From: Lytechinus pictus | Lineage: Eukaryota | NCBI RefSeq assembly: GCF_037042905.1 | Contig: NC_087251.1 | Coordinates: forward strand, 40,922,001-40,986,000 | Length of the DNA stretch: 64,000 bases | Reading direction: 5' to 3' | Shown: positions 10,555-58,500 of the stretch, piece after piece | How the letters are laid out: every line of letters begins with the position of its first letter | How positions within the stretch are numbered: the stretch's first letter is position 1 | Translations under genes and position numbers: made by a program | The notes under the pieces: generated by a model | The model's input: the letters and a program-made list of their open reading frames with translations, nothing else | The model's database searches: none | What the model was told of the DNA's origin: nothing

Positions 10555-12250
10555 TTAAGTTTACCCCTGCCCTGAAAATAAAAATACCCATGCCAAAAAT
10601 CAATTCAACACGGGAGTAAGAATGATCAAAATATTTGCTCACTTATTCCACCATGCACTATCTTTCTTTTTGTATAAACATTGTATAGGTGGCTGCAAAG
10701 TGTATCTACACAAGGGTTTATGCCCCCTACCCATCTTCAATTTTGTCAATTGCAAACAATATAGTGTAGCAAAATATTATTTACCATGCTATACTTTTAC
10801 AATTATTTTCTGTTTGCTCCGTCAGTCTCACTGTTGCTCTCTCAATTCCCTTTCTCATACAAGCAATCAAAGTTTTGTTTGAAGTCTGACGTTATCAATT
10901 ATTTTCACTGCAATACCCAATATTACAGGCCCTACTCAGTTTTGAAGGCTCAAAAGACCAAAGTTTCTATCTGGCAAATATAACTTTTTAATGATCTGTA
11001 GCTAAGTACCCTTCGCTTACAAATATTGAAACTTATTCAAGTGAGTGATGTCACAGACCCCAGTCATAATTTTGAATACTAGTATTACCACCAAAGAAAA
11101 AGGCACTTAGATGACACACTCCACTCACCACAATTTCCATTTCCACATTGATATTCACCTGCAATATATTTTCTCAAATATCAATAACTTCCTAATTTGA
11201 TTTCATTTAAACTTTCACCAATCTGCTTTGCTTATATTTCTGATTCCATGCAAATGATCATATCGGTGATGATCCTTTTAAATCCGACATCTCAACCCTT
11301 ATTTTACCTGCCATTCCAATCTCATACATTTAACTGGACCTTCTTGTTTGAATAAAAATTATAGCAGTTTGAAAAAACAACAACAAAGAATCACTAATAT
11401 AATAATTTATGTTTCCGAAACATTTATTCGCAATTTTACAATTGCTAACCTGTATTCTGCCATTCTCATTAAAATACAAACAATAACTTTTCAACAGAAA
11501 CCCTTAAGATTTAATTTTCAAGAGTTACATATGGAAATAGGATCCTATAACATTCATGGAACTTTCACAAGAAAAAATTTTTTAGCATCGTATTCATTCT
11601 CTTCTTTCCAACGTACATTTAACAATTCTGTTAAAATGTGAAAAATATAGAACTTTTTCTTTGAAAGAAAAAATACATTTAATTCTTACTTCATAAGGCA
11701 TGTGTGCAGCATAAGCGAAAATACATGTCATGGTATTCAAGTTTCTTTTTAATAGGGATTTTCCCTGAGCCTTGAGTTGAGGCTTTGTGAATCAATTTTG
11801 GTCTTTTCGTTGAATATTGAGAACTGTTACAGTAGTGAGCGACAATCAAGTGTGATATATTTTTTTGAATGGCTTGTGAATATCAATTGTGAATATTAAA
11901 TTATTATTGTCAAGCTTGTTGTGATAATTGAATAATCACTGGCTTCACCCATTGGCATATCTAAGTGGGGAAGGGAGGGCATGTGCCATGGGCACTACTT
12001 CAGTGGGGGGGGGGGGCACACAAAAAGGAAAGGTAAACCAAAAAAAGGAAAAAAGGCAAAGAAAAGACACAGGTAAGAAACAAAGTAAGAAAACTGAATT
12101 TGAACTTGCGTAAATCATGCTCGCCTTAAAGAGTACTTGTTCTCAAGAGGGTGCTCACGACTTTACTGCATAATTTAACAAGTCGACGACTATCAACAAA
12201 TCAATGAAGGGGTAGAACTGAGCCTGAAAGAATTGAACTACAGACACATG

Positions 12251-16012: not shown

Positions 16013-19000
16013 CTGGGTAAATCAGGACAAACCATGAAGAAAAAAAAAATGAAGAAATAAAACAGGGAAATGATTAGAATAAGGTACCTTGTCAAAATTT
16101 GGAGCAGGGACTTTCTTGTGGGAATTCCGCAAGTGGCCTTTCGTTTCCAATTCTTACACTTCATCATAGACAAAGGGGAATGCATCAAAGCCGCTATGGA
16201 GAGACTCATAGGCCCGAATTCACAAAGGTGGTTTTGAAAACCCACGGTTGAGTCCATGGTTTATGCAGATTTCCTGTATAAATTACGTTTATTTTAGCGC
16301 TTATTGGCGCGTGTATAAAAAACGTCCAATGCTGATGCGCACTTTTGTCACAGTGCGCCAAATTGACGCCTGTTACCATGGTAAGATACGCTTTTTTATT
16401 CATGAGTCCACTGTTTCAAGAGTGGACTCGTGAATAAAATAGCGTGGATAACCACGGCAACAGGCGTCAATTTAGCACACTGTGACAGAAGCGCGCATTA
16501 GCATTGGACATTTTTTAATATACGCGGTAAAATAAGCATAATTTATACAGGAAATCTGCATAAACCATGGACTCAACCGTGGGTTTTCAAAACCACCTTT
16601 GTGAATTCAGGCCATAGTGCCTTCATGGCACAGACATTTGACAAGTTACCCAAGAGGATAATATTTCTTTAATGATCAAATGTCTGCAAGGGTCACCTGT
16701 CTACATTCTCAGTGTCCCTTTCTCATGTCATTTCTCAGAGTTGGAGCATGTACTTGATAACCATCTAATTGATCAATGAAGAAATACATGTACCTTTTTT
16801 ACGAGGCTGCCATCATTATCAAGCCTAATCGCTCATGATGGCGGTCTCCTGCATTCTTTTAAAACTGTCATTTTCTTTAATGAGTAATACATTTTTTTTC
16901 AAAAATAATATTGATCCAATGCTTATACTGTAACTATAATATCAATTTGTAATATATTACATTTGTACATATTACCTTGTAAACTTACATCTGATATATT
17001 GAATGCAGAAATATAAGCAATCAATCAATCATTAACACATTTTCGTTTCAGGACCATTTCTTATATCAGGGTGACTCTTTCAGCAATATGCTTGTTATCT
17101 CCATGAGAAGTAGATTTCACACTATAATGCATTGTTGATGTCACCCACAACTCATCATCCAGAAAGAAAACATTCCATGAAATTTGACCCCCCAAAAATG
17201 GAAAAGACCGAGAGTGCAAGTACGCCTGGGTCGGAACGGACGGAATCCCAGAATCCGTCCGATGTGTGCGGGTTCCGGTTTTGTTTTTTACATTACGGTA
17301 TTCCGATAAAACACCGGCGGATTCCGGAACAAAAAATTTCGACATGACTCGGGCCTAAGTGCAAGAATTCATCCATGATTGAAACTTACCTTTGATGATG
17401 TGATGCTCTCTTTCTTCTTTGATGAAGGGTCTACTTTTGAAGGGGCCGGTGTGCCTTTCAACATGTCCAGGAAATTGCCTTTTGTTAGCGATGCCTCTAC
17501 TTTAGCCCTCTTTCGTGTTGAACCTCCGACTTCTTTGAGTCTTTCTTCTCTGGTTTTTTGTTGCTTCTTCACTGCATTGAAAAGCTGCACAACACCTCTG
17601 TGGAAAGGAAAAGAAAAGGGCAATCAATCATACAAATGATTTCGAATTAAATACTAAGATTTTTTTTCAAAAGGTGACTACATTAACAACATCACAAATT
17701 GTAACAACTGACTATTGATATCCCCCCCCAAAAAAAAAATCACCCTAATATGAAAACTTCAACAAGTTTGAAGTTGACCCATCAAACAATTATGCAATTA
17801 TCGCAAGAACTCAAATAGGACAGACGGATGACCTGAAAATGAGATGCGTCCGTCCAATAAACACGGTGATTTACAATCTTTTGAATGGCTTTGGTGATCT
17901 GACATCCCAAATACCTATTAGTTCTTCATTCCTTGCCCCAATTTATTTCAAATTTATTATTGTTTCATTACTTCTCTTGCATCTGCTCTGTTGAATTTAA
18001 GTGGTAGATAGTCATTTCAGGCACAACTATTACGCAATAACAAATGTTAAACACTATTTTATCATCATAGCTGTTGCATGGGCATGGGAACAATTTTCAA
18101 AGAGAGGGTGCTAGTTTGTTATTAAACGAAAAGTCTTTTTGTCCCCAAAATGAAGTGGCTTCCGGTGAGAAAAAAATTGACAAGGCATAAAAAAAAAAAT
18201 TCATTCCAAAATGAAGTGCATTTTGCTCAGGAAAAATATTGACAAGCCCCCCCCCCCCCCTCAAAAAAAGAGTGTTTTTGTTCCAAGTGATGTGGGTCAA
18301 ATCTCAACATTTTAGCATACTAACCACATTTGAAGGGGGTGCTGCATGTGGGGTAACACAGGGGTGCTTCAGCACGGAGACACATCATATGCTCCTAAGA
18401 CAATTGCTCCTGTCTTAATATCTCAGAGGGCATAGAGTTAGAGTTAGGATTGTGATAGAGTTTTAGGTTCAGAAAAATGTACATATAAGGATTAGGGTTT
18501 ATTTAGTTTTGGAGGTTAATTCTTAGGTTTGGCTTAATGTGTAGATTTTCCATGAGAGCAATTGTCGCCAGAACAAATCATGTCATGGAACCTTCAGGAC
18601 ACCTGCTTCCCAAGGCCATGAGCTGTTGGTGCTACATGTACATACTTTCATCCTTAAAGTACAACATAATCACTTTAAACTTTAAGATTTACACAATGAC
18701 AGAGAAGTCATGACTCACTTTGTTGCTATTCGTTGGAGAGATCTTTCAAACTCCTTGTCAGTTACTTTGGGCATCACCTTGGCCATGTTTTCCCATTTCT
18801 TTCTGCTTTGTTTCTGAAAACATAACAAAGACTTAAAATAGAATTATTCATAATAACAAATGAATAAATGATAAGTTTTCAGGAGCCTAGACAAAAAAAA
18901 GGAATGCATACAAAGATCATGTCTAAACTTACCACACATCTATAATTCAAACCCATCTATAAAAATATATTATTTTTGTTGATTCTATTTAGGAGTCTGC

Positions 19001-22930: not shown

Positions 22931-24249
22931 AATGGGGTAGATCAGGACTTGATTATATATAGCTAGGTAAACCTGTGCGTCGATGTAAGAAACGGAGTCT
23001 GAGATGTTAGAAAATTTATAAATTGTCTGTTATGCAAGCGCAGGGCTATATAAGGCCTGCTGAAAATTTAATTAAAATCGGATGTAAAATAAGGAAGTTA
23101 TGACATTTTAAAGTTTCGCTTATTTTTCACAAAACAGTTATATGAACAACTCAATGACATGCAAATGAGAGAGTCGATGATGTCCCTCACTCACTATTTC
23201 TTTTGTTTTTTATTGTTTGAAATATAGAATATTTCAATTTTTACAGATTTGACAATAAGGACCAACTTGACTAAACCATAAAATGTTAAGGAGATGGTAA
23301 TTCCACGTGTTCAGGGACGAATGAAACTTTTGTTCAAGGACAATGAGGAGATAATGGAAATAAATCATATTTCATATAATGAAATACAAAAGAAATAGTG
23401 AGTGAGTGATGTCATCAGTCCCCCCCCCCCCATTTGCATATACCGACCAGGATGTGCATAGAACTGTTTTGTGAAACTATAAGCGAAACTTTGAAATTTT
23501 ATGTCATTTCATTTCATTTATTTTCCATTTCCAACAATCATTTACAATAAGTTTTGTTACATACATCTTGATATAATTATAATCAATAAAACAAGGAAAC
23601 ATTATTTATAATAATCAAGTTAACCATGTATCAGGTCGGAAACGGAGGAAGCTGCTAAAAAGCGAAGCTTGTAGAATGCAGCCTTCTATTACATATTCGT
23701 TGAACAATATAAACAAAACACAAATACAACATGGTAGAAATTTGAGCATGAAACCATTTCTGCTTTTTCTTCTGTCTATTGCGCAGCATATCCTTCACAG
23801 CGAAGACCTCTTTGTGTGAATAACTTTGCACTTGTTCTGTAATTATGCTTACATCAATATGATTTCGACCTTTTTGGTCATTCTCTTTTTTCTTTCCTGT
23901 ATATAAACGCATGTATGAATAAGTCGATTATATTTTCTTCATTTCCAAGGGGGATCCACACTTTACAAGCTTTGCTTTGTAGTGGACCCCCCTCATTTCC
24001 ATTTATGCTCAATATTATACTGTTTTTTGTTTTACGAAGTAAGAATGCTCGTCTGTAAAATTGCATTTGATTTGTAGTACTTTATATTACTGTGTATTAT
24101 GTTTTGAATGGAAATGGAATAAAGAATTCAATTGAATGAATTGAATTGAATGTATATATTTAAAAAAAGAAAGAAAGAAGGAAATAGAAAATGAAAAAAA
24201 AAACGAGATAAATAGTCTCCAGATTCTTGCCCCGGCACTCACAGCGAAT

Positions 24250-25075: not shown

Positions 25076-25784
25076 TATGTCATAACTTTCTTATTTTACA
25101 TCCGATTTTTATGAAATTGTCAGTGTTATGCTCATTGGATTTTTCTCTTTTTATTCAAATAAACTTTTTGTTGGGGATGGACTTGTCCTTTAATCGCTTG
25201 AAGAGAACATAAACATATTAGGGGCCAGCATAATCACGGGAAAACTAAGATGGAGAGGGGTCTTAATATTTTTCTCCCCCCCCCCCTCCCCCGCGCCAGT
25301 TCACTCTAAGGAGGGACTCCAAAATGCCTATAAGTGCTTAATTTCAAATCATGTTTAAAAAAATAAACAGTCAAAAACTACAATTTTGGCGGGCTCTTTG
25401 AGTGAAGATATTTTGTCCGGCCAAGAAAGCATGCAGAAATCGGCGATTAATGTCGAAATATGGATCCGCCCTCGGCGAGGCATTTCTCACATGAATCGTG
25501 ACTGGGGTATCAAGAGAAAAAAAAACCTCCCCCGAATGAGCATAGTGCTTTGGAGCTAATTAATAATATAGGCCCTTCATTACAATGAAATAATGCAAAA
25601 TGACAACAAAAAGGCAGTTTAAAGAATTGCTAACATTATTTTGAATATATCAGACACTATCACAAAGAACGAATTTCCAGTAAATTATGTCACATTTCAT
25701 GTATAAATTTTGTGAAATACAATCTGCAGGGCTAAGATTTTTCTTCGAAAGACCATTTCCAAATATTCGGGACCCGCCCCGCCC

Positions 25785-28700
25785 GCGAAATTATTTTTCC
25801 CACCGAGTTCTGGACCAACATATGAATATTCATGAGTTGCGTCTTCGGATTAAGAGTACGCATGCGCGTGGACTTGGCCTCGACCAGTGCCGGTCGTAAG
25901 CATTCACGTTGCTCAGAATTAATTAGCATCGTCATATTACCGGTACCCTTACATAGTTACATAGGCCTTATAGGCTTAGATCTATATATATATAAACTCC
26001 TCAAAAAAAAGTTTGGAAATCTGACTTTGATCGATAATCCCTCCTCGGATTTAATAAATAACAATGTTTAATTAATATCAACGAATAGAACATTTAATTT
26101 TCTTGCAGTCAGATGTCATCAAAGCACTATTATCTTGATCATGACCCCTTTTGCCTAATAATTTTGACAACATTTTTCAAACCAATAGAGATATACATAC
26201 ATATAATACTAGAAACTCAGCTGATACTCGTGCAATATATGGCCATTATTCTTTCTCAAACAACATATTTTTATGTAGGGGACCCATTATTTGGAATAAG
26301 ATCCCTCAAAATATCAAGCAGTGCAAAACCCTTCAAAGCATTAAAAGACATTTAAAAATACATTTCATGCAGAAAGTCTAATACTAATAGTAATACTGAT
26401 ATAGATAAATTGTATACTTTTGTTATGTTTGTTGTTCTGTATTTCCTGACTGCATTTGTTTTTTAATTGTGTTGTTTTGTGTTAATTTCAGGATCACTAA
26501 CTTATAAGTTCCTTGTAACTTCTCAGTGATCCTTCCACTATTCTTAAATATACTCACTTTTGTTATAATGTATTTCATTGAAATATTTATACTTTTTGAT
26601 TTGTATGTTTTTTATGAAGACTGTGGTAAATAAAGTTTCAATTTTAATTTCAATTAATCATTGTTAAAAGGGCATCCTTGCGCAATGTTGCCAGCGCGAA
26701 CCACCAGCTCAAACTTCTTGACATGTCGTGTAATAAGACATGGAAATTAAATATTTTGAGCTGGTTTTGTAATCATGAAAAAGATGTCTATCTAACTAAA
26801 AAACAACTTTACGCTCGCTAAATTTTTTGTATATACTGACCAGTAAAGGAAGCAGTTAATTACTGCATTTTAAATAGGATACATAACTCACCAATAAAAA
26901 TAATGCGAGTGCAAAGCGCGAGCTCAAAAATTTGTGATATTCCAACCTGAACACTGGACATTCTAAGCATTTTTTTTTGTGAACGGGAAGAGAACGAGTA
27001 CAATAATTGATGCGAGTGCAGGAAGCGAGACAAAAATTTGTGATATTCTAACCATAAAACAACATTTTATACATTTTTGTAACCATGAGCAGGATTAGTA
27101 CTGTACTAAACAATAATTGATGCAAGCACGATTCAAAATCTGTGATTTTCGAACCTAAAATGTATTATGTTTTATTATTAAAGAAGGTATATTTCTCTTT
27201 TAAAAAGGGCATATTTCATTTGGAAAAAAAAAATCCTACAGGGATTTTTTTTTTTTGGGGGGGGGGGGGGCAAGAGAGCACAAAGCGCAAGCTAAAATTT
27301 TCACATGCTTAAACTGAAAATGAGTCAATTTTAGGACTCTTGTCAGTTTTCATATTTTTTTCTGCTTACAACCACCTTTAAATTTCAATTCTCATTTCTT
27401 GTATCTTCTACACTTATTTTACCTAAAAAAACAGAATAAAGAATACTAACAAAATAAAGTTATATTCAAAAGGATATAAAACAAACAGGGCGCACCCCAT
27501 ACCCTTAGTTGGGAGAGGGTAAATCTTAATTATTTCTTTAAACAGTTAATCAATCATTAATTATTAATATTTATTGATAATATTAATAATTTTTAATTAT
27601 TCAATTATTATTTTTTTATTATTATTTCTTGAAACCATATTGACACAAAAACAAATACGTTGTTTATTTCCTTGAAACTGTAGAGAAATGAAATTCACTG
27701 TTGAACGATATATGATTAAAAAAGAAGTAAACATTTCTTCCCCTTTGTTTTGTCAATCTGACCCAAAACATATATACAATTTAGAAAAGAGATAGAGAGA
27801 AGAAGAAGTTCCACCACCAAGAATAAACTTAGACAAGGGGGGGGGGGGAGGGAAAGGAAAAGATGGAGTAAATGTGATATTATTTTTTAAACAATCTATC
27901 GCAAAATTAGCTTTTCCTATAGAAAGAGGGGGACAAATTTTGTTCACTCGCTCGCTTCAATCGCTTTCTTCTTTTTTTTTGACAGAAATTTTGCTTTGTA
28001 TGCCATGTTTGGCCCCTCAAAGTTTCTGGCTCATCATGCCATTGACATAACCCATTTGAATATGACAAAATTGAAGACTGTGTTCAAGTTTACCAAATCT
28101 TTTCAGAATATCATTAAGACTTAAAACATTCTTGTTGGCCAAAGAAAATAATACAAGGAAAATCCTAATGGAATAGAAATCAACCTTGTTATCGTTCTTT
28201 AGAGTTAGCTATGTTTAAAGTATGAAAATTGTTGTCAAAATTGCAGTCAGATGTAAAAATTATTCTTGTCATCAAAGCACTATTATCTTGATCATGACCA
28301 TTATTATTTACTGTCATTATCATCATATGATTACAACATATTACCAATACATAATGCTATTTTTCATAACTGATGTATTCTTTGTTTGAATTTCTTGATA
28401 ATGGTGACAATTACAATTGATGACACTGCTAGTACACTTACTACTGCTGCTGCTACTGTTACTGGTGATTGGTAGTATTGACCATTAGTGTTATTAAATA
28501 TATTTTAAAAAAACAATTGAAACATTTATAATTACTTATTTCAAACAAATGAAAGTACAAAATACAAAATGCCTTGAAATTTCAATGCTCAAAATCCTCA
28601 AGGCCAAGGCCCTCTCAACGCCAAGGCTTTGAAAAAGTAGGCATTAAGGCGCCTTAAGGCCAAGGCCGAGCATCAAGGCACTACAACACCGATTATATAC

Positions 28701-29042
28701 AGTAGTACTAGGCATTAATTAGACAGGTCCAGATTTGAGGTAAAGTTAATGCGCTAGCCTAAGCTAGCCCTACCCTAGCACATGTCTTGCCATTAATGGC
28801 AGCTAGTTTATTAAGTGTTTAAGAATTGGATATATATATAAGCCTATCTAAGCCTATAAGACCTATGTAACTATGTAAGGGTACCGGTAATTTGACGATG
28901 CTAATTCATTCTGAGCAACGTGAATGCTTACGATCGGCACTGGTGGAGGCCTAGTCCACGCGCATGCGTACTCTCAATCCGAAGACGCAGGTCATGAATA
29001 TTCATATGTTGGTCCAGAACTCGGTGGGAAAAATAATTTCGC
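25785..29042. mobile_element. non-autonomous Mutator-like element (MULE), ~200-bp TIRs
   Basis: 25785-~25980 is the inverted complement of ~28847-29042; G...C termini; exact 9-bp TSD GCCCCGCCC (25776-25784; 29043-29051). Confidence 0.8.
26148..26660 (+). mobile_element. LINE 3' end inside the MULE
   Basis: HTYNTRN...RGPIIWNKIPQNIKQCKTLQSIKRHLK, then AATAAA-like tail. Confidence 0.7.
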
Positions 29043-29271
29043 GCCCCGCCCCCTCGATCGCTTGTCGAGTTATGTCGCGAATTAGCGCTTTTGCTTTTTT
29101 GTAATTGCACTTCTGTTGCAGTCAAAATGGTTTACAGTGGTTACGGCGGTTTGCGCGATCAAAATTTTCTCCAAGAATCGTGAGAGAAATTTCTTAATTG
29201 TTGTAATGTTGGAATAACTTCTACATCATATTATCAGACAAGAAGATATCAGTATTATGGTTGACACATAG
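29043..29271 (+). promoter_or_regulatory. candidate betaH-spectrin promoter (GC box) and non-coding first exon ending at AG|GTGAGA (29271)
   Basis: CpG-rich unique sequence with GCCCCGCCC, followed by a good donor; the first coding exon has an upstream acceptor and so needs a 5' exon. TSS not proven. Confidence 0.4.
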
Positions 29272-29379
29272 GTGAGATGATTCAGTAAATAAATCGAATG
29301 TTTCGTATGATTATTGATTCTTAATTTTTGTAATAAGCCGAGTCACTCAGCTCAGGCTCTCAGTCTCAGCTCAGCTTAA

Positions 29380-29987
29380 CCCAGAGAGCTCCAGCCCGCG
29401 TAGCGGGCTGGAGCCCAGACGCTCAGTGTGCAAACGGGCATTAAGGTGAGAGTACCGTGAAGTTTGGTCAAAATAATTTTGATAATACATAATTAAAACA
29501 GAAATTAAGCACTTACCACGATTGTAGGGATGATAGTCTAACGAGTGGCAGTTTCCTGACATCGAGGCACAGACTGGAACCTCAAAAAACGATCAGTTCT
29601 GTCGCGGTGGCTCTCCTTCTTTCAAAATTCATAGCAAAATGGCCGTTCGAGAGGGTGTAGGGCGCATGCGCGAATTTGACAAAGTCTATATGCGCTAGTG
29701 CTATACTAGCCTCGGTCTCGATCGGCCATTTTGTGTTGAATTCTGAAAGAGGAGAGCTACCGCGACAGAACTGATCGTTTTTTGAGGTTCCAGTCTGTGC
29801 CTCGATGTCAGGAAACTGCCACTCGTTAGACTATCATCCATACAATCGTGGTAAGTGCTTAATTTCTGTTTTAATTATGTATTATCAAAATTATTTTGAC
29901 CAAACTTCACGGTACTCTCACCTTAATGCCCGTTTGCACACTGAGCGTCTGGGCTCCAGCCCGCTACGCGGGCTGGAGCTCTCTGGG
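29380..29987. mobile_element. piggyBac-like foldback MITE, ~265-bp near-perfect arms
   Basis: TTAA|CCCAGAG...CTCTGGG|TTAA; explains the mirrored identical ORFs at 29371-29562(-) and 29805-(+). Confidence 0.85.
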
Positions 29988-30077
29988 TTAAGCTCAGCTC
30001 AGAGAGGCGCGCGTGAATGTTACGAAAATTGGTGGTGTCCAACGGGACACCTGCGGCCGCTCAGTGGTCGGGCGGCG

Positions 30078-31491
30078 CACAGTGGGCCAGAATGAGTTGA
30101 AAGTGCGCCAAAATTATATTCCGTGTTATATTTTTACTTGAACATGTTGATTACGGGTAATTTTGGGCGTAGAATCGACTGAACATAATTTAAAGCCGAT
30201 ATGACGTCACTTTGATACAAAATTTTGATTGGCTAGGGCCTACTTAAGTCTTAAAGTTAAATTAAAACCTAGGGCTAGGGCCTGGCCCTATCTGCATGAT
30301 CTGTGATTGTGAAAAGACAAATTACGCTAAACAATGTGCAGTACCTGAAGCTGTAACTTTGTGTTATGACTTTTGTGTTACTTTAAGATTGACCAAAGTG
30401 AATGTTGATTTATGCTTCTCACATGCCTAAAAAGTGTGTATGAGATCCTGAAAATAATTGTATGGCATCAAAATGATCATTAGATCTAAAAAAAAATACT
30501 TACAAATCTGAAAAATATTAACCATGCTTTATCAAGCGGTGTAGACTTGGGTAAAACGCAGAGTATATAACACCACGAATGTTTTACTATGAGGAGGGCT
30601 TTTGGCTGAAATTATTCTACAAGTAATTTTTATCTCTGGAAGAGGGGGTGGGTAGCCTTTACCTTTACTCGAGATTCTGGAAGAGTGCTGTGGATCCCAG
30701 CAGTCGGGCTTCCAGTTCTGTGCCATTTTCATCCGTCTCAATGATTGGTGTGGTGTCTGCTCAGTGTCGTTTTGGCTCTTATATGCATTATCAACCTTTA
30801 TTTTGTTTGCATTATGCCCGGAATTCATGTCATTTTCATGGAATTGAAGGAGAATCGTCCTCGCCGTGCAAAAATGAACGGCAATGTACACCCCAAACGC
30901 TGCGCTGCGATGACTGCGCGGTATAAAAATGACAGTTTTTAACAGGTTTTGGGGGTGTTGTGTCAAGTAAAATCGGCTCTAACATAAAAACGTGCAAAAA
31001 CGGGCAGCTAAATTTGGTATCTTCTTAAAGCTTAGACATCTGGCAAAATGGTGATGATCGAATTTCAACGGAAATCCACGGAAATCGAAACGTTTCTAAT
31101 GTAAATGCAAATAACATGGATTACCAGCATATTTCGAGGAATTATTATCCTATAAACATCCTGAAATGTGTCTTTTATCTACTTTGAACCCTTTCACTTA
31201 AAAAAGAATATATCAGGATTATGTGGGTGCCATTTCAGATTCCTACATGAAAAACCTCATGTGAAATTGCTTGTTTTTCAACTAAGTTGTCATATACGCG
31301 GCATTTCGCAAAATGTCACATTTTACGTTTTGAGGTATGAAATTAACATCCTTTATGCAAATTCCCGAATGAAATATTTTGCTGAAGTATTCTTCAAAGT
31401 GTTGTCTTTCAGCTGGGCATGACAAAATCAAAAATCTAAAATTGCCCAAAATGACTTTTGGCGCACTTTTGTTTCGCCCCGGCCCATTGTG
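30078..31491. mobile_element. non-autonomous Transib/RAG-like DNA transposon with RSS-like termini
   Basis: Ends CACAGTGGGCC...GGCCCATTGTG, shared subterminal AAAGTGCGCCAAAA, exact 5-bp TSD CGGCG (30073-30077; 31492-31496). Confidence 0.8.
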
Positions 31492-32157
31492 CGGCGGGGC
31501 GATGATGCGTGTGAGGGGCCGGTGTAGTGGCGTATTTCATAGTACTGTATATGGTTCCACCGCCGGCAGATATGGCCGCGCCGGCAGATATCGTTTATAC
31601 TTTATAGTCATACTATAAACGAGTTAGTATAGGCAAGTTCCCCTAACTTAAGTCTGCGCATGCAGTCCCCCTTCCTTGTCTGCGCATACCGGTACGTGTA
31701 TCTGCGTGATTCTAATTTCTAGTAAAATATGATACGCAACGAACACAAATTTTACACATCTAAATTAAATGTAATGCATAGAATGATACACAGATATTAA
31801 TTACAAAGTCCGACTCACAATGCCGGGTTGAGAAATTTGGGCATTTCTTGTCATGCTTGTGACGGCCTCAAAATGCAGCCTTAAAGTTTCTCATCAAAAT
31901 CCCCGAATTGCGTGCAAAGTGAATGGGTGCGCAGACATGGGGCACCATTTTTTTGTTCAATCTGAAAATGACTGCCCAAGGTTTTTTCCAAGAAAATCAT
32001 TTATTTTCTTTCAAATTTTTATAAGATATTTTGCACACTAACTCATAATGATGTAAGGAACATTATCAACTGAAAGATTTTGTGAAATAAAAAGAAATTC
32101 ATGTTAAATCTTAACTCAAATCGTTAGGTGCACAGACTTGGGGACCACCATCATACT

Positions 32158-32800
32158 ACTAGCCTTGACTTCGTGATGATATTTTTTAATATTTTGATAT
32201 ACCGCCCGGTATACTTCTTCATCACGAAGCCTTGAAACTCTTCCCATAGACGCATTTAAACGAGATCTTCAGTAGGCCTACAGTGCACACCCGGATGGAT
32301 TTCCCTAGGAAATCCATATTTAGAGGGTGATTATAAATAATATAATAATCATTTTTAATCAAGTTTAAAATTTCATTATTTGTTAAATAATAATTTGTAT
32401 CTATAAATTGTTCTTCAAAATGGCATTTTGTAACATCGCTTATCGAAGGTACGTACGTCATAACGCAGTGGTTCAAGGGTCAAGCCTATTGTATTTGCTT
32501 TGTTGACAAACTTATCGAGGGATCTGCACGAGATCGGTCTTGTAAGAAACCTATAATTTTTCACATTCATAGTGAAATAATTTTTATCCCTTCATACGCA
32601 TTAGGTGAACAAAGGTTCATAGATAAATAAAATAAATACATACAAACTGATTTCGCCCTCTAAATATGGATTTCCTAGGGAAATCCATCCGGGTGTGTAG
32701 GTCTCGCTTATGCGTCTATGGGAAGAGTTTCAAGGCTTCATGGTGAAGAAGTATATGTCAAAATATTAAAAACTATCATCACAAAGTCCTCAAGGCTAAG
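32158..32800. mobile_element. foldback element with ~170-bp imperfect arms
   Basis: gaagccttgaaactcttcccatagacgca...cccggatggatttccctaggaaatccatatttagaggg is mirrored at 32655-32800. Confidence 0.7.
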
Positions 32801-33306: not shown

Positions 33307-33435
33307 ATGGCCTCTGTCGGGTCAGGCCAAGGCGCTAGTCACTTTGAGAAGGGGCGTATCCATGCACTACAGGAGGAACGCATCGCCATTCAAAAGAAGA
33401 CTTTCACTAAATGGATCAACTCACATTTGTCAAAG
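33307..33435 (+). CDS. SPTBN5: betaH-spectrin coding exon 1 ([43 protein letters not shown])
   Basis: Acceptor at 33285 implies an upstream non-coding exon; donor AAG|gtacag. Confidence 0.9.
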
Positions 33436-36400
33436 GTACAGTACAACCCCCTTCAATTATCCAACTAACACACAGTCAAATAACCTTTATTTAGATCTAT
33501 TTTTGTAATCACTGTAATGCACAAAACATCCCATTGTGCCCTTTATCATTATCATCGATATCGTTATCGTCACCATCATCATCTTCATCATGATCATCAC
33601 CACCGTCATCAACATCTCATGATTATCATGAACATCATTATCCTCCTCTTCCTCATCATCATTGTACATGTATATACCCCATGAATAATATTCAAACAAT
33701 GATCGCATCATGTTTTATGCTGCATTTGCAAGCATAGTGTACATTATTAGAAAGGCCTTTAATAGGGAAATTGTATGTTACAGTTGACCTATGTGTGAAA
33801 TTGATATCTTCATCTGGTAATAATGTTTAAAGACGTCTTTCCGATGTAATAAGCGCTCCTCAAAGGGGAATATTATTATTGCAAAAAAGGGATTCTTTCA
33901 CTTGGACCCTGGTGAAAATTAGATGAGGACTTTGGGCAGGGGGGGGGGGGTGTCCTGCATTCAATGATAATTTTATATATTGTAATCTGAGCTTGATTTG
34001 ATCTCTGAAGCATACTGAAACCTGCATTTTATATCCATAAGAAAAGTTCAATGTCACAATATTTCAAGAGTATTTTTCAGGATTCTGCAGTCTTATTCCG
34101 CCATCTTCTGGGGCCGATTGCACGAAAGGGTCTTTTCAAGGACCGTCTTTCGTGTCGCCCATCTTTTATGATGCGCTATAAGCGGGGTGTTTCTGAAATT
34201 TATGATAAACAGATAAAATTCGTTAGCTTGCTTTTAAATCAAATTTTATACAATTTAATGAGATATCACATCATTTTATAAACATATATTTTGTTTATTT
34301 TAACGGACAAATAAAATATATTTGCAGATAATTTATTTGAAATGCGTTTCACATGGCGTATCATAAAAGATGGGCGACACGAAAGACGGTCCTTGGAAAG
34401 ACCCTTTCGTGCAATCGGCCCCTGAATGACCTTCCTTAGCAGACAAACCGTCACTTTGCATTGTATATACCCATGTACTCCATCACTCTCTTTTAATTCT
34501 TTCTTTGCAGGCAAACCTGCACATTGAGAACCTGTTTGAAGACCTCCATGATGGGAAAGCACTGATGCGTCTTCTTGAGGTTATATCGGGTGAGTCGGTA
34601 GGAAGACCCAATCATGGCAAGTTACGGGTGCAGAAGATGGAGAACATTAACAAGGCCCTCCGGTTCCTCTCATCTAAGGTTAGTCTTTTCAACTTTGTCT
34701 GTTGAAATTCATTGTTGTTTGTCTGTTGTAGATAGATGTAGACGTAAGATTGAGACAAGATTAATTAAAAGCATACCTTTTTAATTTTTTGACTAGGTCA
34801 TGTAGAAATGATGGGGTGTTTCAGAAAGATTTTAATCTGACTAAACGTTGAAGAACTTTACTGTGTGTGGTACAAAACAATACTGAATTGGTTAGGTCAC
34901 ACTCATGGGATGCGTGCTACCACGTACATGAGATTGTGTTAAAAAGCATGTGCATGTTAGCACTTATGTATGGCTTTAAGTGTGAAAACACTTCCTGTGT
35001 TTTTATTGCTTCTCGTAATTGATGAACGCAGTAAGATACATGGAGAAAACTTGAATATAGCCTGATTATAGGTAAATTGTTTTGTCTCAATTCACAATTT
35101 TATAGTGGAATTAGGTTCTGTTCAATCACCACATTCAATTCAGGTCAAAAGCTAAGGGAATGTGGAGAAATATGAATAATCTTTTATGAAATTTGTGAAG
35201 AGGCCATATCCAGTAATGTACTTTACATTTTTTTCATTGTAGTCTTTTCTATTATCGTGTTGGATTGTGCAGTGGTAACATTAAATAACTCACAAAGAAC
35301 ATGTGAATATTACATGTAATATGCATTGTTTGATTCAGTCTGTTGTAAAACAGAACTTTAGATGAGTACAATTTATTCTGCCTACCTGCCTTCAAGTTCA
35401 TCTTTATGCCAGTACAAGAATACCATGCACATGTAGATATGTCCTATATATCGTTGAGATTTTAATGTTTGTTTTGAAACGATAAAACATGAAGAAAAGT
35501 CACTCAGTATAAGTGACAGTACAGGTTGAAACAATTGAAATGTAATTTTTTTCAGAGATCACTCCAGCAGATACTTAAGCTTTCCCTTTTTGTGGAATTT
35601 AATATTTTTTTATTATTCTACATCCAAGTGAATAAAATTTTGTATGTGAGCTACATCTAGCCACTATCACATCTTTGTTTATCAATTTGATGACTAGGGT
35701 TGAAAATTATATTGCGAGACCTATGCCAAGTAGGAATGTGTACTTTGGAGTGACAGGAGTGATTTTCTATGCAAATATTGAGAGTATTAACTGCTGTGTC
35801 GTCAACATTGAAATCTTAACCAAAGTTGAGTGCTTGAAATATCCCCATAAATAGACATATTTCTTGAAACTTGGACACAATAGTAACCAAGTATCAATGG
35901 ATATGCTCCCTGAGTTGAAGGTCATGGAGGGTCATTGAATTGAACTTAGAGTATGTTGAGAGAATCATCTTCGAAATCTTAATCAAGATTAAGTTTTCAA
36001 AATGTCATTATAACTTTAAAAGTAGATGGATCTAGTTCATGAAACTTGGACATTAGAGTAATCAAGTATCACTGGACATTTTGCCTGAGTTTCAGGTGAC
36101 TCAGGTCACATGACGAGGGTCAAAAGTCATTAACGGTCAGTGAACTTAAACCATGTTGAATTATTTGTTGAAATACCTTCATAAGTTAATTTTATGGATC
36201 CTGTTTATGAAACGTGGACATAAGGGTAATTGAATATCACATATCATATTGCACAAGTCTTAGGTCACACGATCAAGGTCAAAGGTCATTTATGGTAAAG
36301 AAATGTAGTATTTCATTATCATATGAAAATGGCGCGTTTTAAACGGTGTGTTTTAAAACATGTTTTAAAACGCGTTTTAAAACACCCGTTTTTTTTACAA

Positions 36401-55500: not shown

Positions 55501-58500
55501 AACAATTATTAAGGGACTTCAGATGGCTGTACAATCTCATCAGGTAGGTCACCTAGACTGCTTTACACAAAGAACTGTAATTGATTGCAGATATCAAACA
55601 ATGATTAAGGGACTTCAGATGGCTGTACAATCTCTTCATATAGGTCAACTTTGCCCTATCCATGACACAAAGAATTATCAAACAAGGATCAATATTTTTT
55701 ATGATGGTTTTCTTAGTAAACAACCAAACAACTGTTTTTTGCCTTATGGTGATGATCTTGATTGGTCATTTCCATTTTATGATTGATATCGATGCTACAT
55801 GGCCCTGGGTCCTGTTGAATAACAGTTACTATTATGGTAGTGTTGGAATCGATTGGTAACTACGATCATCAGCCAATCAAAATCAAGGATTCCATTAAAG
55901 ATACCATTGGATGGTAAAGTTGCTATTATAGTAAATTTTATGCAAAGGATCTTGTCAAGATTAGGGTAGTGACTATCATTCTTATTCTATCTCATTCAAA
56001 AATGAGAACCAAAATTCTTTAAACATGGTTATTGTCAAAAACTTTTTGCAAACAATATTTTTTCATCACTTGTACAAGGCAATAGATGAAATACATTATA
56101 GGTTATTTTCGCATTATAGGGGGTCTAGAATGTAAGGTTATACACCGCTATTTTAATTGTCAAAGATGCTTTCCTGTTATATTTCTACATTATTTAAATT
56201 TAAAGTTTCACTCACGACTAGTGATTCTTTCATATTGATGACAATTTTGCCTCATCCAACATTTATCATGAAATATTTCCTGAAGCATTCTTTTTTTTTT
56301 CCTATATTACTTTTTTTTTAAATGATCAATTGTATACCTGGTTTAAAGATAAATACCAGTTGCGGTAACAATCCCAAAATGAGTTCAAACAGAATTTAAT
56401 AAAATTACCACCCAAGTATTTGTATGTATAAGTAAAAAAATATATGTGCCAAAATGGCTGTGGAAGAAAATGTGTAATTTCTTAGAAATGAGCAAAATAA
56501 GCACAGAGTCCCATCGAATGTTGGGTATTTTCCCCAAGAAATATTAATACACTGTCCCATATATTCTTTTCTGTGTTAGTGATCAACAGAATTATCGGTT
56601 TTGAGCTAAGATTTCATGATTTCACAAAGTTTGCATTAATGTTCCAGTTCTACATATATGATAATATGGTGACAATTAACCTTGATTTAAAAGACTTTCT
56701 CATGAAATAATTGTTTGCTGCAAGTACTTTCTTTTTTATACCTTTGATATTTAGTACTACATTGATGCTAATGAAGCTGAATCGTGGATGAGAGAGAAGA
56801 TGCCATTGGTCTGCAGTGATGACTATGGGAAGGATGCGGATTCAGCTAAGACTATGCTGCAGAAGCACACAATACTGCATGAAGAGATACAGGCTTATGA
56901 GAATGAGGTGGTACAACTCAGAGAAAATGGAGAGAAGATGATGACCACCATCAAATCTAATCAAGTAAGTTGAAGATGAGGATCCAGGGCCCTGTTCAGA
57001 AATTATTATAATGAAACGGAACACAAAAAATTGAACCACTGTATTTGCACTTGAATCTTTTACTTGCATTCAAACCCTTGTATCTTTTTGCATTGGGCCC
57101 TGATGTAGCGGAAGATGCATGAAGAAAGGCTGAAATATAAACTGGCATTACGGTATTGGAGCACTAATGAGCTTTCAGAATACCACCCCTTGTCAGGTTG
57201 GTTTATGTGGGTTGGAACAAAGCCTTGAAAGTGGTGGGGGACAAATTCCTATAATCCAGCAGTATGAGGAACTTAAAGAATTGATTCAGTGGTCCTGGAT
57301 TTATGCGCAGCGTCATGCCTTGCCAATGATGACATTAAAAATGGGCATTTTGATTTGAACTAATAGGCCTGTATTCTGAAGTCGGGTTTAACTTAAACTC
57401 AGGTTTAAAGTTGCGGTTAAAGTATGGATAGCCAATTGTTACATAAATCACTAACAGTAGAGATATAATATTCCACCTCATTTGGCTCTCAAATCCTTAA
57501 CTGTGTAGGAAGTATGAAAAGATGATTGTCTTCACCATCGATGAATCAGGAATGAGTACAGTAAACATAAGAAACATACAACTTCAAGCGCCATGAGCGC
57601 CCAGCTGAGGCGGATACCGGCGCTATACAAGAACCCATCATCATCATCAACTTAATACAAATTTTGACACTTTTGGCTTCCCGTAAGTTTAGCACAGAGT
57701 TAGACCATGGTCTAAGTTAAACCTGACTTCAGAATACGGGCCATTGTGTCTGATTGATATGCTTCTGCAAAAACCCAAGCACAAATACGCACACATACAT
57801 GAATTAGCGATTTGATTTTAATGACAGGTCGGTATGATATTGTACATTGTTCCTTTCAACAGACAAAGATGCAAGGGAGATCATCACCCCTGATGGATGA
57901 GGAATCCTTTACAACGGAGACGGTCGATGTTTCTTATGAGGTGGAGGAGGAAGAGACCGTTGAACGAGAGGTCATCAAGGAAGTGATTGAAGAGAGGAAG
58001 TATCCTCAGGTCAAAGCCTTGTATAACTACAAAGGAGAAGACATGAAGATAGCCAAGGGAGAGGTGAGAATGATTTATATTACATAGGTTATGTAGATTC
58101 GAATCAGTGATAGGTCAATACGCCATCACGTGACCATAGCTGCGAGGATCGCATTTGTTATATTCTAGGTTTTGACGTCACCTCAGTGAATATAACTGCG
58201 TTGTATTGTCATTTGCGGCGTTATATTCACTAAGGTGACGTCACTCGCTGCTTACAAGTTGCGTAATCAGGTAGTTTATTAGATGTACACGCTAGTGTTA
58301 ATGCGTCGATTGCATGAAGAACGCGCTTGATTTAATTTCCAAAATTTGTCCATTATGACGTAAATGGATCAGAGCTGCAGCGAGAATTTCAAGTTAATCA
58401 GAGAGCCAGATGATGGATGTAATCTCTGATGGCGAATCTACATAGACTATATAATATAACAGATATTGCTTGGTCTATCTTTTTGATAAATAAAATTTCT

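Follow-up and report, generated by a model that had tools for sequence, protein, structure and literature searches.

What kind of mobile element carries V(D)J RSS-like ends near the 5′ end of a spectrin gene in Lytechinus pictus, and which transposase could have moved it? The window analyzed here, a stretch of 64,000 nucleotides on contig C7 of the genome (G000), holds at positions 30078 to 31491 an element of 1414 bp with no assigned strand, flanked by exact copies of the 5-bp target-site duplication CGGCG (30073 to 30077 and 31492 to 31496, both + strand). The left terminal inverted repeat (TIR) of 36 nt (30078 to 30113, + strand) consists of CACAGTG, GGCC, 11 variable nucleotides, and the box AAAGTGCGCCAAAA; the right TIR, also 36 nt (31456 to 31491, − strand), consists of CACAATG, GGCC, 11 variable nucleotides, and the same box at the same distance. 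The first-pass annotation had described a recently inserted, non-autonomous Transib/RAG-like element with 12/23-like asymmetric ends, possibly served by a surviving autonomous partner, and the letters that it had cited are all present. The left end reads CACAGTG, 23 nt, and CCAAAATTA, with TTGAAAGTG at the 12-nt spacing, and the right end, in reverse complement, reads CACAATG, GGCCGGGGCGAA, and ACAAAAGTG, with CCAAAAGTC at 23 nt. The two ends of this copy align without gaps over 36 nt (27/36 identical) and have the box at positions 23 to 36 in common. Within the window the end frame is confined to the two ends of the element, against an expectation of 0.00 from 100 shuffles. The longest reading frame of the element had no match in a Pfam search, and a RAG1L profile search of 40 loci and the window found no remnant (best i-E, 1.6); as far as found, the element is without coding capacity. 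An Rfam search of the window gave 0 matches.

The element belongs to a large family. A DNA search of the 812-Mb genome with the element returned 677 candidates, the best 40 of which were scored. The left 36-mer matched the genome 339 times and the usual right 36-mer 270 times, both at ≤2 mismatches and with a control of 0, so there are roughly 300 copies. The 30 loci described below are the best-scoring copies, and the whole family may be older; they are usually about 1.22 kb long, with a mean pairwise identity of 94.5%. The 5-bp duplication recurs in these copies, being exact in 27 of 30 and matching at 4 of 5 positions in the remaining 3, while re-pairing the flanks 2000 times gave 7.9 exact duplications on average and at most 16 of 30. 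The target is CGNCG in 26/30 copies, and the six flanking bases are 67% G+C, compared with about 36% in the window. A CAC start is found at 30/30 left and 29/30 right ends, and AA occupies nonamer places 5 and 6, 23 nt behind the heptamer, at all 30 left and all 30 right ends. The right-end CACAATG is a variant shared by 3/30 copies (the window copy, L002, and L003), most copies having CACAGTG. Some copies lie back to back, with a few bases between them, or nested (G000:C7:6570976-6571052, C2:29474422-29474499, L016, L007, and L026), as if the CG-rich insertion site of an earlier copy attracted further insertions.

The generic frame, CACAGTGGGCC-N11-AAAGTGCGCCAAAA, has 709 exact matches in the genome, with several spacer types (control, 0); its invariance among these matches is built into the search pattern, and the independent instances are the two ends in the window and one published end. 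Among the 709 matches is a 2-kb sister family that has the same frame, with CCCAAAGTG and GCAAAAGTG at 12 nt. This sister Transib family (L066, G000:C1:35539742-35541758, plus about 100 more ends) has a CGCCG duplication, other spacers, and little internal likeness to the window family. With a pattern written for other spacer types 108 matches were obtained, and among the 100 listed nearly all belonged to the 2-kb sister family. One odd end (L072) marks an older relative that is 76% alike across 480 nt and lacks a coding frame. The family also occurs outside this genome, since all of it is covered by contigs of another organism from public runs (three studies), most often at 90 to 95% identity. 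Two single ends, both from related families, came from metagenome contigs, and no family end was found in the prokaryote genomes searched.

The closest published counterpart is TransibN1_SP, a non-autonomous element of the purple sea urchin whose end is printed in Fig. S4g of Kapitonov and Jurka 2005 (PMC1131882), where copies are flanked by CGGCG, CGCCG, and CGACG duplications. Compared with that end, the left end in the window is identical at 28/36 positions, the right end at 31/36, and the usual right end of the family at 32/36. The likeness comprises the 36-nt frame, the same three duplications, the absence of coding sequence, and a size near 1 kb, and is known from ends, target, size, and lack of coding alone. 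In contrast to the ends of TransibN1_SP, which are perfect inverted copies, those of the window family have different 11-nt spacers on the left and the right, so that the left end and the usual right end agree at 28/36 positions. The autonomous Transib1_SP, described in the same paper as a 4132-bp element whose two exons encode a 676-aa transposase and whose duplication is CGGCG, was compared by this published description alone; it shares the CGGCG duplication with the window element and, unlike that gene-less element, encodes a transposase. The copies and the TransibN1_SP match thus bear out the annotation's view of a non-autonomous Transib-type family with CAC ends and GC-rich 5-bp duplications. 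We consider it very probable that the element is a non-autonomous Transib of the TransibN1_SP type and that a Transib1_SP-type DDE transposase supplied in trans moved it. Membership in Transib is suggested by the ends and the target; according to a passage in a 2026 preprint (10.64898/2026.08.26.747230), ends and duplications support such membership and do not decide it.

Are the two ends asymmetric in the 12/23 sense? The annotation's observation of a left/right sequence difference holds across the family and is not drift in this copy: TTGAAAGTG is present in 28/30 left ends and ACAAAAGTG in 30/30 right ends. The difference does not extend to an offset in length between the ends. The best gap-free match between them lies at offset 0 (13/13), and offsets of +11 and −11 both give 8/13, which reflects a periodicity inside each end and not a left/right difference. 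The box start is at 26 in 26/30 left ends (4 are mutated) and in 30/30 right ends. In a 12/23-asymmetric element, one end would have the conserved A-box about 11 nt closer to the heptamer than the other end has; the box of the window family is equidistant on both ends, and this family is therefore not a true 12/23 element. As described in parts of PMC1131882, Transib ends comprise a heptamer, 23 nt, and an A-rich nonamer, and 12/23-like ends have been reported for Transib5, Transib2_AG, and TransibN1-3_AG (PMC1131882 and PMC8355894). The window family resembles these elements in its RSS-like heptamer, A-tract, and 5-bp duplication; their 5′ ends are RSS12-like and their 3′ ends RSS23-like, whereas the window family has equal spacing at both ends.

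A functional asymmetry could nevertheless be imagined, in which the transposase would require one end of each kind, a right end recognized by its 12-spaced ACAAAAGTG and a left end recognized by its 23-spaced CCAAAATTA. The family-wide difference (28/30 and 30/30) fits such a rule, as do the two similar words, ACAAAAGTG and CCAAAAGTC, that lie one helical turn apart on the right end. The 12-spaced word is the best nonamer match in the right-end profile and is kept in 30/30 copies, and HzTransib is described in PMC4840297 as sensitive to nonamer position in vitro and as preferring 12RSS substrates. Each of the 30 paired copies combines a left end with a right end, although the pairing rule itself demanded this. 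Against it stand the zero offset and the scores of the words themselves: the right end resembles the 12-nt and the 23-nt form equally well, matching the RSS nonamer at 6.0 of 9 places at 12 nt and 5.9 at 23 nt, and the left end, whose scores for these spacings are 3.0 and 5.0, retains AA at the 12-spaced places 5 and 6. Indeed, all 30 copies have AA at these places on either end, for the 12-nt as well as the 23-nt spacing. On the right end, three spacer bases followed by the initial six letters of the common box make up ACAAAAGTG. The symmetric TransibN1_SP carries ACCAAAGTG, almost the same word as in the window family, at the 12-nt place on both ends, which leaves the 12/23 asymmetry unsupported, and the sister family has other letters there. 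At a divergence of about 3%, selection and descent are indistinguishable as reasons for the preservation of the 12-spaced word. We regard a functional 12/23-like asymmetry as improbable. The simplest reading of the sequences is that the left/right difference lies in a free spacer and may have been fixed in the founder copy.

No autonomous Transib with these ends was found with RAG1-based queries and the long end pairs listed, and such queries barely reach Transib (HzTransib was hit at an E value of 3.7e-5 in the PDB set). A search of the genome with PF12940 gave 22 matches, all of the RAG1L type; a RAG1L protein query at E values up to 10 gave 52, of which two weak ones on C8 are short RAG1L-like fragments; and a homologue search returned 40 proteins, all RAG1-like, with no Transib among them. 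Six long end pairs (L063-L065 and L075-L077), picked by eye among the matches listed, contain nested insertions or a duplication only. From their reading frames, we take the inserts to include a LINE, a Penelope-like element, and a Tc1-like element. The other long end pairs have inserts without long frames, and one has a duplicated left part.

The search for RAG-like partners detected two RAG1L/RAG2L-like pairs in the genome. The first is a RAG1L-RAG2L transposon of 13.6 kb (G000:C182:10626-24199; L053, L031, and L054) flanked on both sides by CGGAG, with the ends CACAATGGCAAATC at 10626 and CACAGTGGCAAATG at 24199. Its RAG1L gene has three exons that encode 828 aa with no internal stop and with the catalytic and zinc-knuckle motifs; the product is identical to a database protein (P0001), and its best match among solved structures is BbeRAG1L (6b40; E value, 1e-149). 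The convergent RAG2L gene, also in three exons, encodes 472 aa with kelch and PHD matches, and all four introns of the element are GT-AG. An empty site, with a single CGGAG and flanks that are 100% identical, is found on C10 (L080, near 2.976 Mb) and on C292 (L078); the insertion is haplotype polymorphic. A motif common to both ends of this element (10/13) lies 12 nt behind the heptamer on one and 23 nt behind it on the other, an offset of 11 nt; of 2000 shuffles, 50 reached such a match at any offset and 9 at offsets of 10 to 12.

A further copy on C233 (L067, L032, and L068) is 99.7 to 100% alike in the three pieces compared. It has other flanks, no duplication (CCTCG on the left and CGCAA on the right), and one base missing in its 3′ end, and it may join the flanks of two further insertions. 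The second RAG1L/RAG2L-like pair (G000:C4:15673407-15683400; L033 and L056) is 49% identical to the C182 protein and has an open core frame; a host repeat seems to break up its first RAG2L exon, and no matching ends were found within 6 to 7 kb of it. Degenerate RAG1L copies lie on C10, C13, C2, and C5, and a tandem run lies on C9. According to Martin et al. 2023 (PMC10629977) and Yakovenko et al. 2023 (PMC9885083), neither an intact RAGL nor one with its ends was known from echinoderms or sea urchins. Our literature search returned no paper on a RAG1 transposon in Lytechinus pictus, and among the matches listed since 2021 no title reported an intact echinoderm RAGL.

Could this RAG1L-RAG2L transposase mobilize the window family, which would then be a RAG-like miniature element? 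An intact pair (828 and 472 aa) does exist, with its own ends, an empty allele, and a CGGAG duplication; its ends and those of the window family begin with identical heptamers, and it too inserted at a CG-containing 5-mer. However, over the first 16 bases its ends agree with the window ends at only 9 positions in all four comparisons, and for this reason it is probably not the partner; the difference in ends leaves a RAG1/RAG2 partnership unsupported. No family end lies ≤1.5 kb from any of the 22 RAG1-family matches or within 6 to 7 kb of the two intact RAG1L frames, the 40 loci and the window yielded no RAG1L-like remnant, and the family ends match a published Transib family, TransibN1_SP, instead. 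Taken together, these points make mobilization by the RAG1L-RAG2L transposase extremely unlikely. The published RAGL transposons ProtoRAG/BbeRAGL-B, PflRAGL-A, and TransibSU resemble the window family in their CAC ends and GC-rich 5-bp duplication; as described in parts of PMC10629977, PMC7204232, PMC4411706, and 10.1101/100735, they carry genes for RAG1L and RAG2L and are A-rich directly behind the heptamer, whereas the window family is gene-less and has GGCC at that place. (We also drew on parts of PMC9435367.)

We return to the Transib reading, under which a DDE transposase of the Transib1_SP type, the kind most likely to move the window family, would be supplied in trans. It would bind two equivalent 36-nt ends, each composed of the heptamer and GGCC, an 11-nt free spacer, and the box, and would cut at the CAC border by nick and hairpin. 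The ends would then be joined 5 bp apart, with a 5-bp stagger, into a CGNCG site in GC-rich DNA, and it is this spacing that would produce the 5-bp duplication. The two ends would differ in the free spacer only, as fixed in the founder copy. This scheme builds on the observed ends, copy number, 5-bp duplication, target preference, and equal box spacing; which transposase acted, and that it cuts by nick and hairpin, we infer, the latter from the description of HzTransib in PMC4840297.

The age of the window copy bears on its relation to the neighboring gene. The element does lie near the 5′ end of a spectrin gene, 1.8 kb upstream of an ATG at 33307. The first recognizable coding stretch of this beta-type spectrin (33307 to 33435, + strand) is a 42-aa piece from the start of the first CH domain that has no Pfam match of its own; the exon after it matches Pfam CH, and a later exon matches Pfam Spectrin. 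The gene, with CH domains and spectrin repeats, occupies 33307 to 61600 (+ strand) of the window. Near 58000 we read what we take to be the start of an SH3-like domain, with no Pfam SH3 match, suggesting that the gene may encode a beta-heavy spectrin.

A recent or still polymorphic insertion that affects this gene would be consistent with the intact duplication and ends and with a position upstream of the start codon. The intact features are no sign of recency, though, because they are usual in the copies examined (27/30). The annotation's proposal of a recent insertion conflicts with the divergence of the window copy from the family majority, which is 4.3% (mean, 3.1%; range, 2.5 to 4.5%), and with the LINE fragment and other small insertions that it contains. 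The copy is 97% like its nearest listed relatives. With hundreds of copies in the genome, a position near some gene is to be expected. The right flank is single copy in the genome, and there is therefore no paralogous empty site. No public run contained as much as one-fifth of the words of an empty site; in four runs that hardly covered the right flank, none of the 15 joints listed of 126 skipped the element, which argues neither for nor against an empty allele. We judge a recent insertion with an effect on spectrin to be very unlikely; the insertion is middle-aged and shows no sign of function.

Two stretches set this copy apart from the usual length. Positions 30236 to 30307 (no strand assigned) hold about 72 nt, through later insertions in this copy, where the alignment of other copies has about 13 nt, and the contigs of the related organism skip the stretch. 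Positions 30656 to 30778 (− strand) come from a LINE retrotransposon that inserted in this copy; they form its 3′ end, which has a (GGTAAA)n tail and is 98% like other copies of that LINE. This extra piece of about 120 nt had been considered as a transposase remnant, a reading rejected once it was recognized as a LINE 3′ end. The LINE family itself (L058-L062) is young, with copies 99% alike, variable 5′ truncation, and the same tail, and its 3′ end has 135 candidates in the genome. A longer copy (L058) has an open frame of 490 aa in which we recognize what are presumably reverse-transcriptase motifs.

The window holds other elements as well. A foldback element at 29364 to 30003, whose arms of 254 nt are 98% complementary and 132 nt apart, ends 70 nt to the left of the Transib copy. 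Further long inverted-repeat elements, MITE-like or foldback, lie at 32167 to 32788, 16211 to 16613, 25784 to 29043, and 34106 to 34426; the one at 16211 to 16613 has CACAGTG/CACTGTG within its arms.

RSS-like Transib ends, GC-rich 5-bp duplications, near-identical sea urchin ends, and 12/23-like ends were all published in 2005. The window family is a further family of this published Transib kind, and the element therefore matters little as it stands. It would matter more if the right end had two transposase boxes, at 12 and 23 nt, and the left end one at 23 nt, and if a Transib transposase or the intact RAG1L-RAG2L paired a 12-read end with a 23-read end. That would place a deuterostome Transib between symmetric ends of the TransibN1_SP type and the 12/23 rule, as a testable intermediate, a prospect that we count as a long shot. 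The family is also a usable natural data set on a strong CGNCG target preference. The more valuable object lies outside the window: the RAGL transposon on C182 is intact and polymorphic, has a real 11-nt offset, and is of a kind that, according to a 2023 paper, had not been found in echinoderms.
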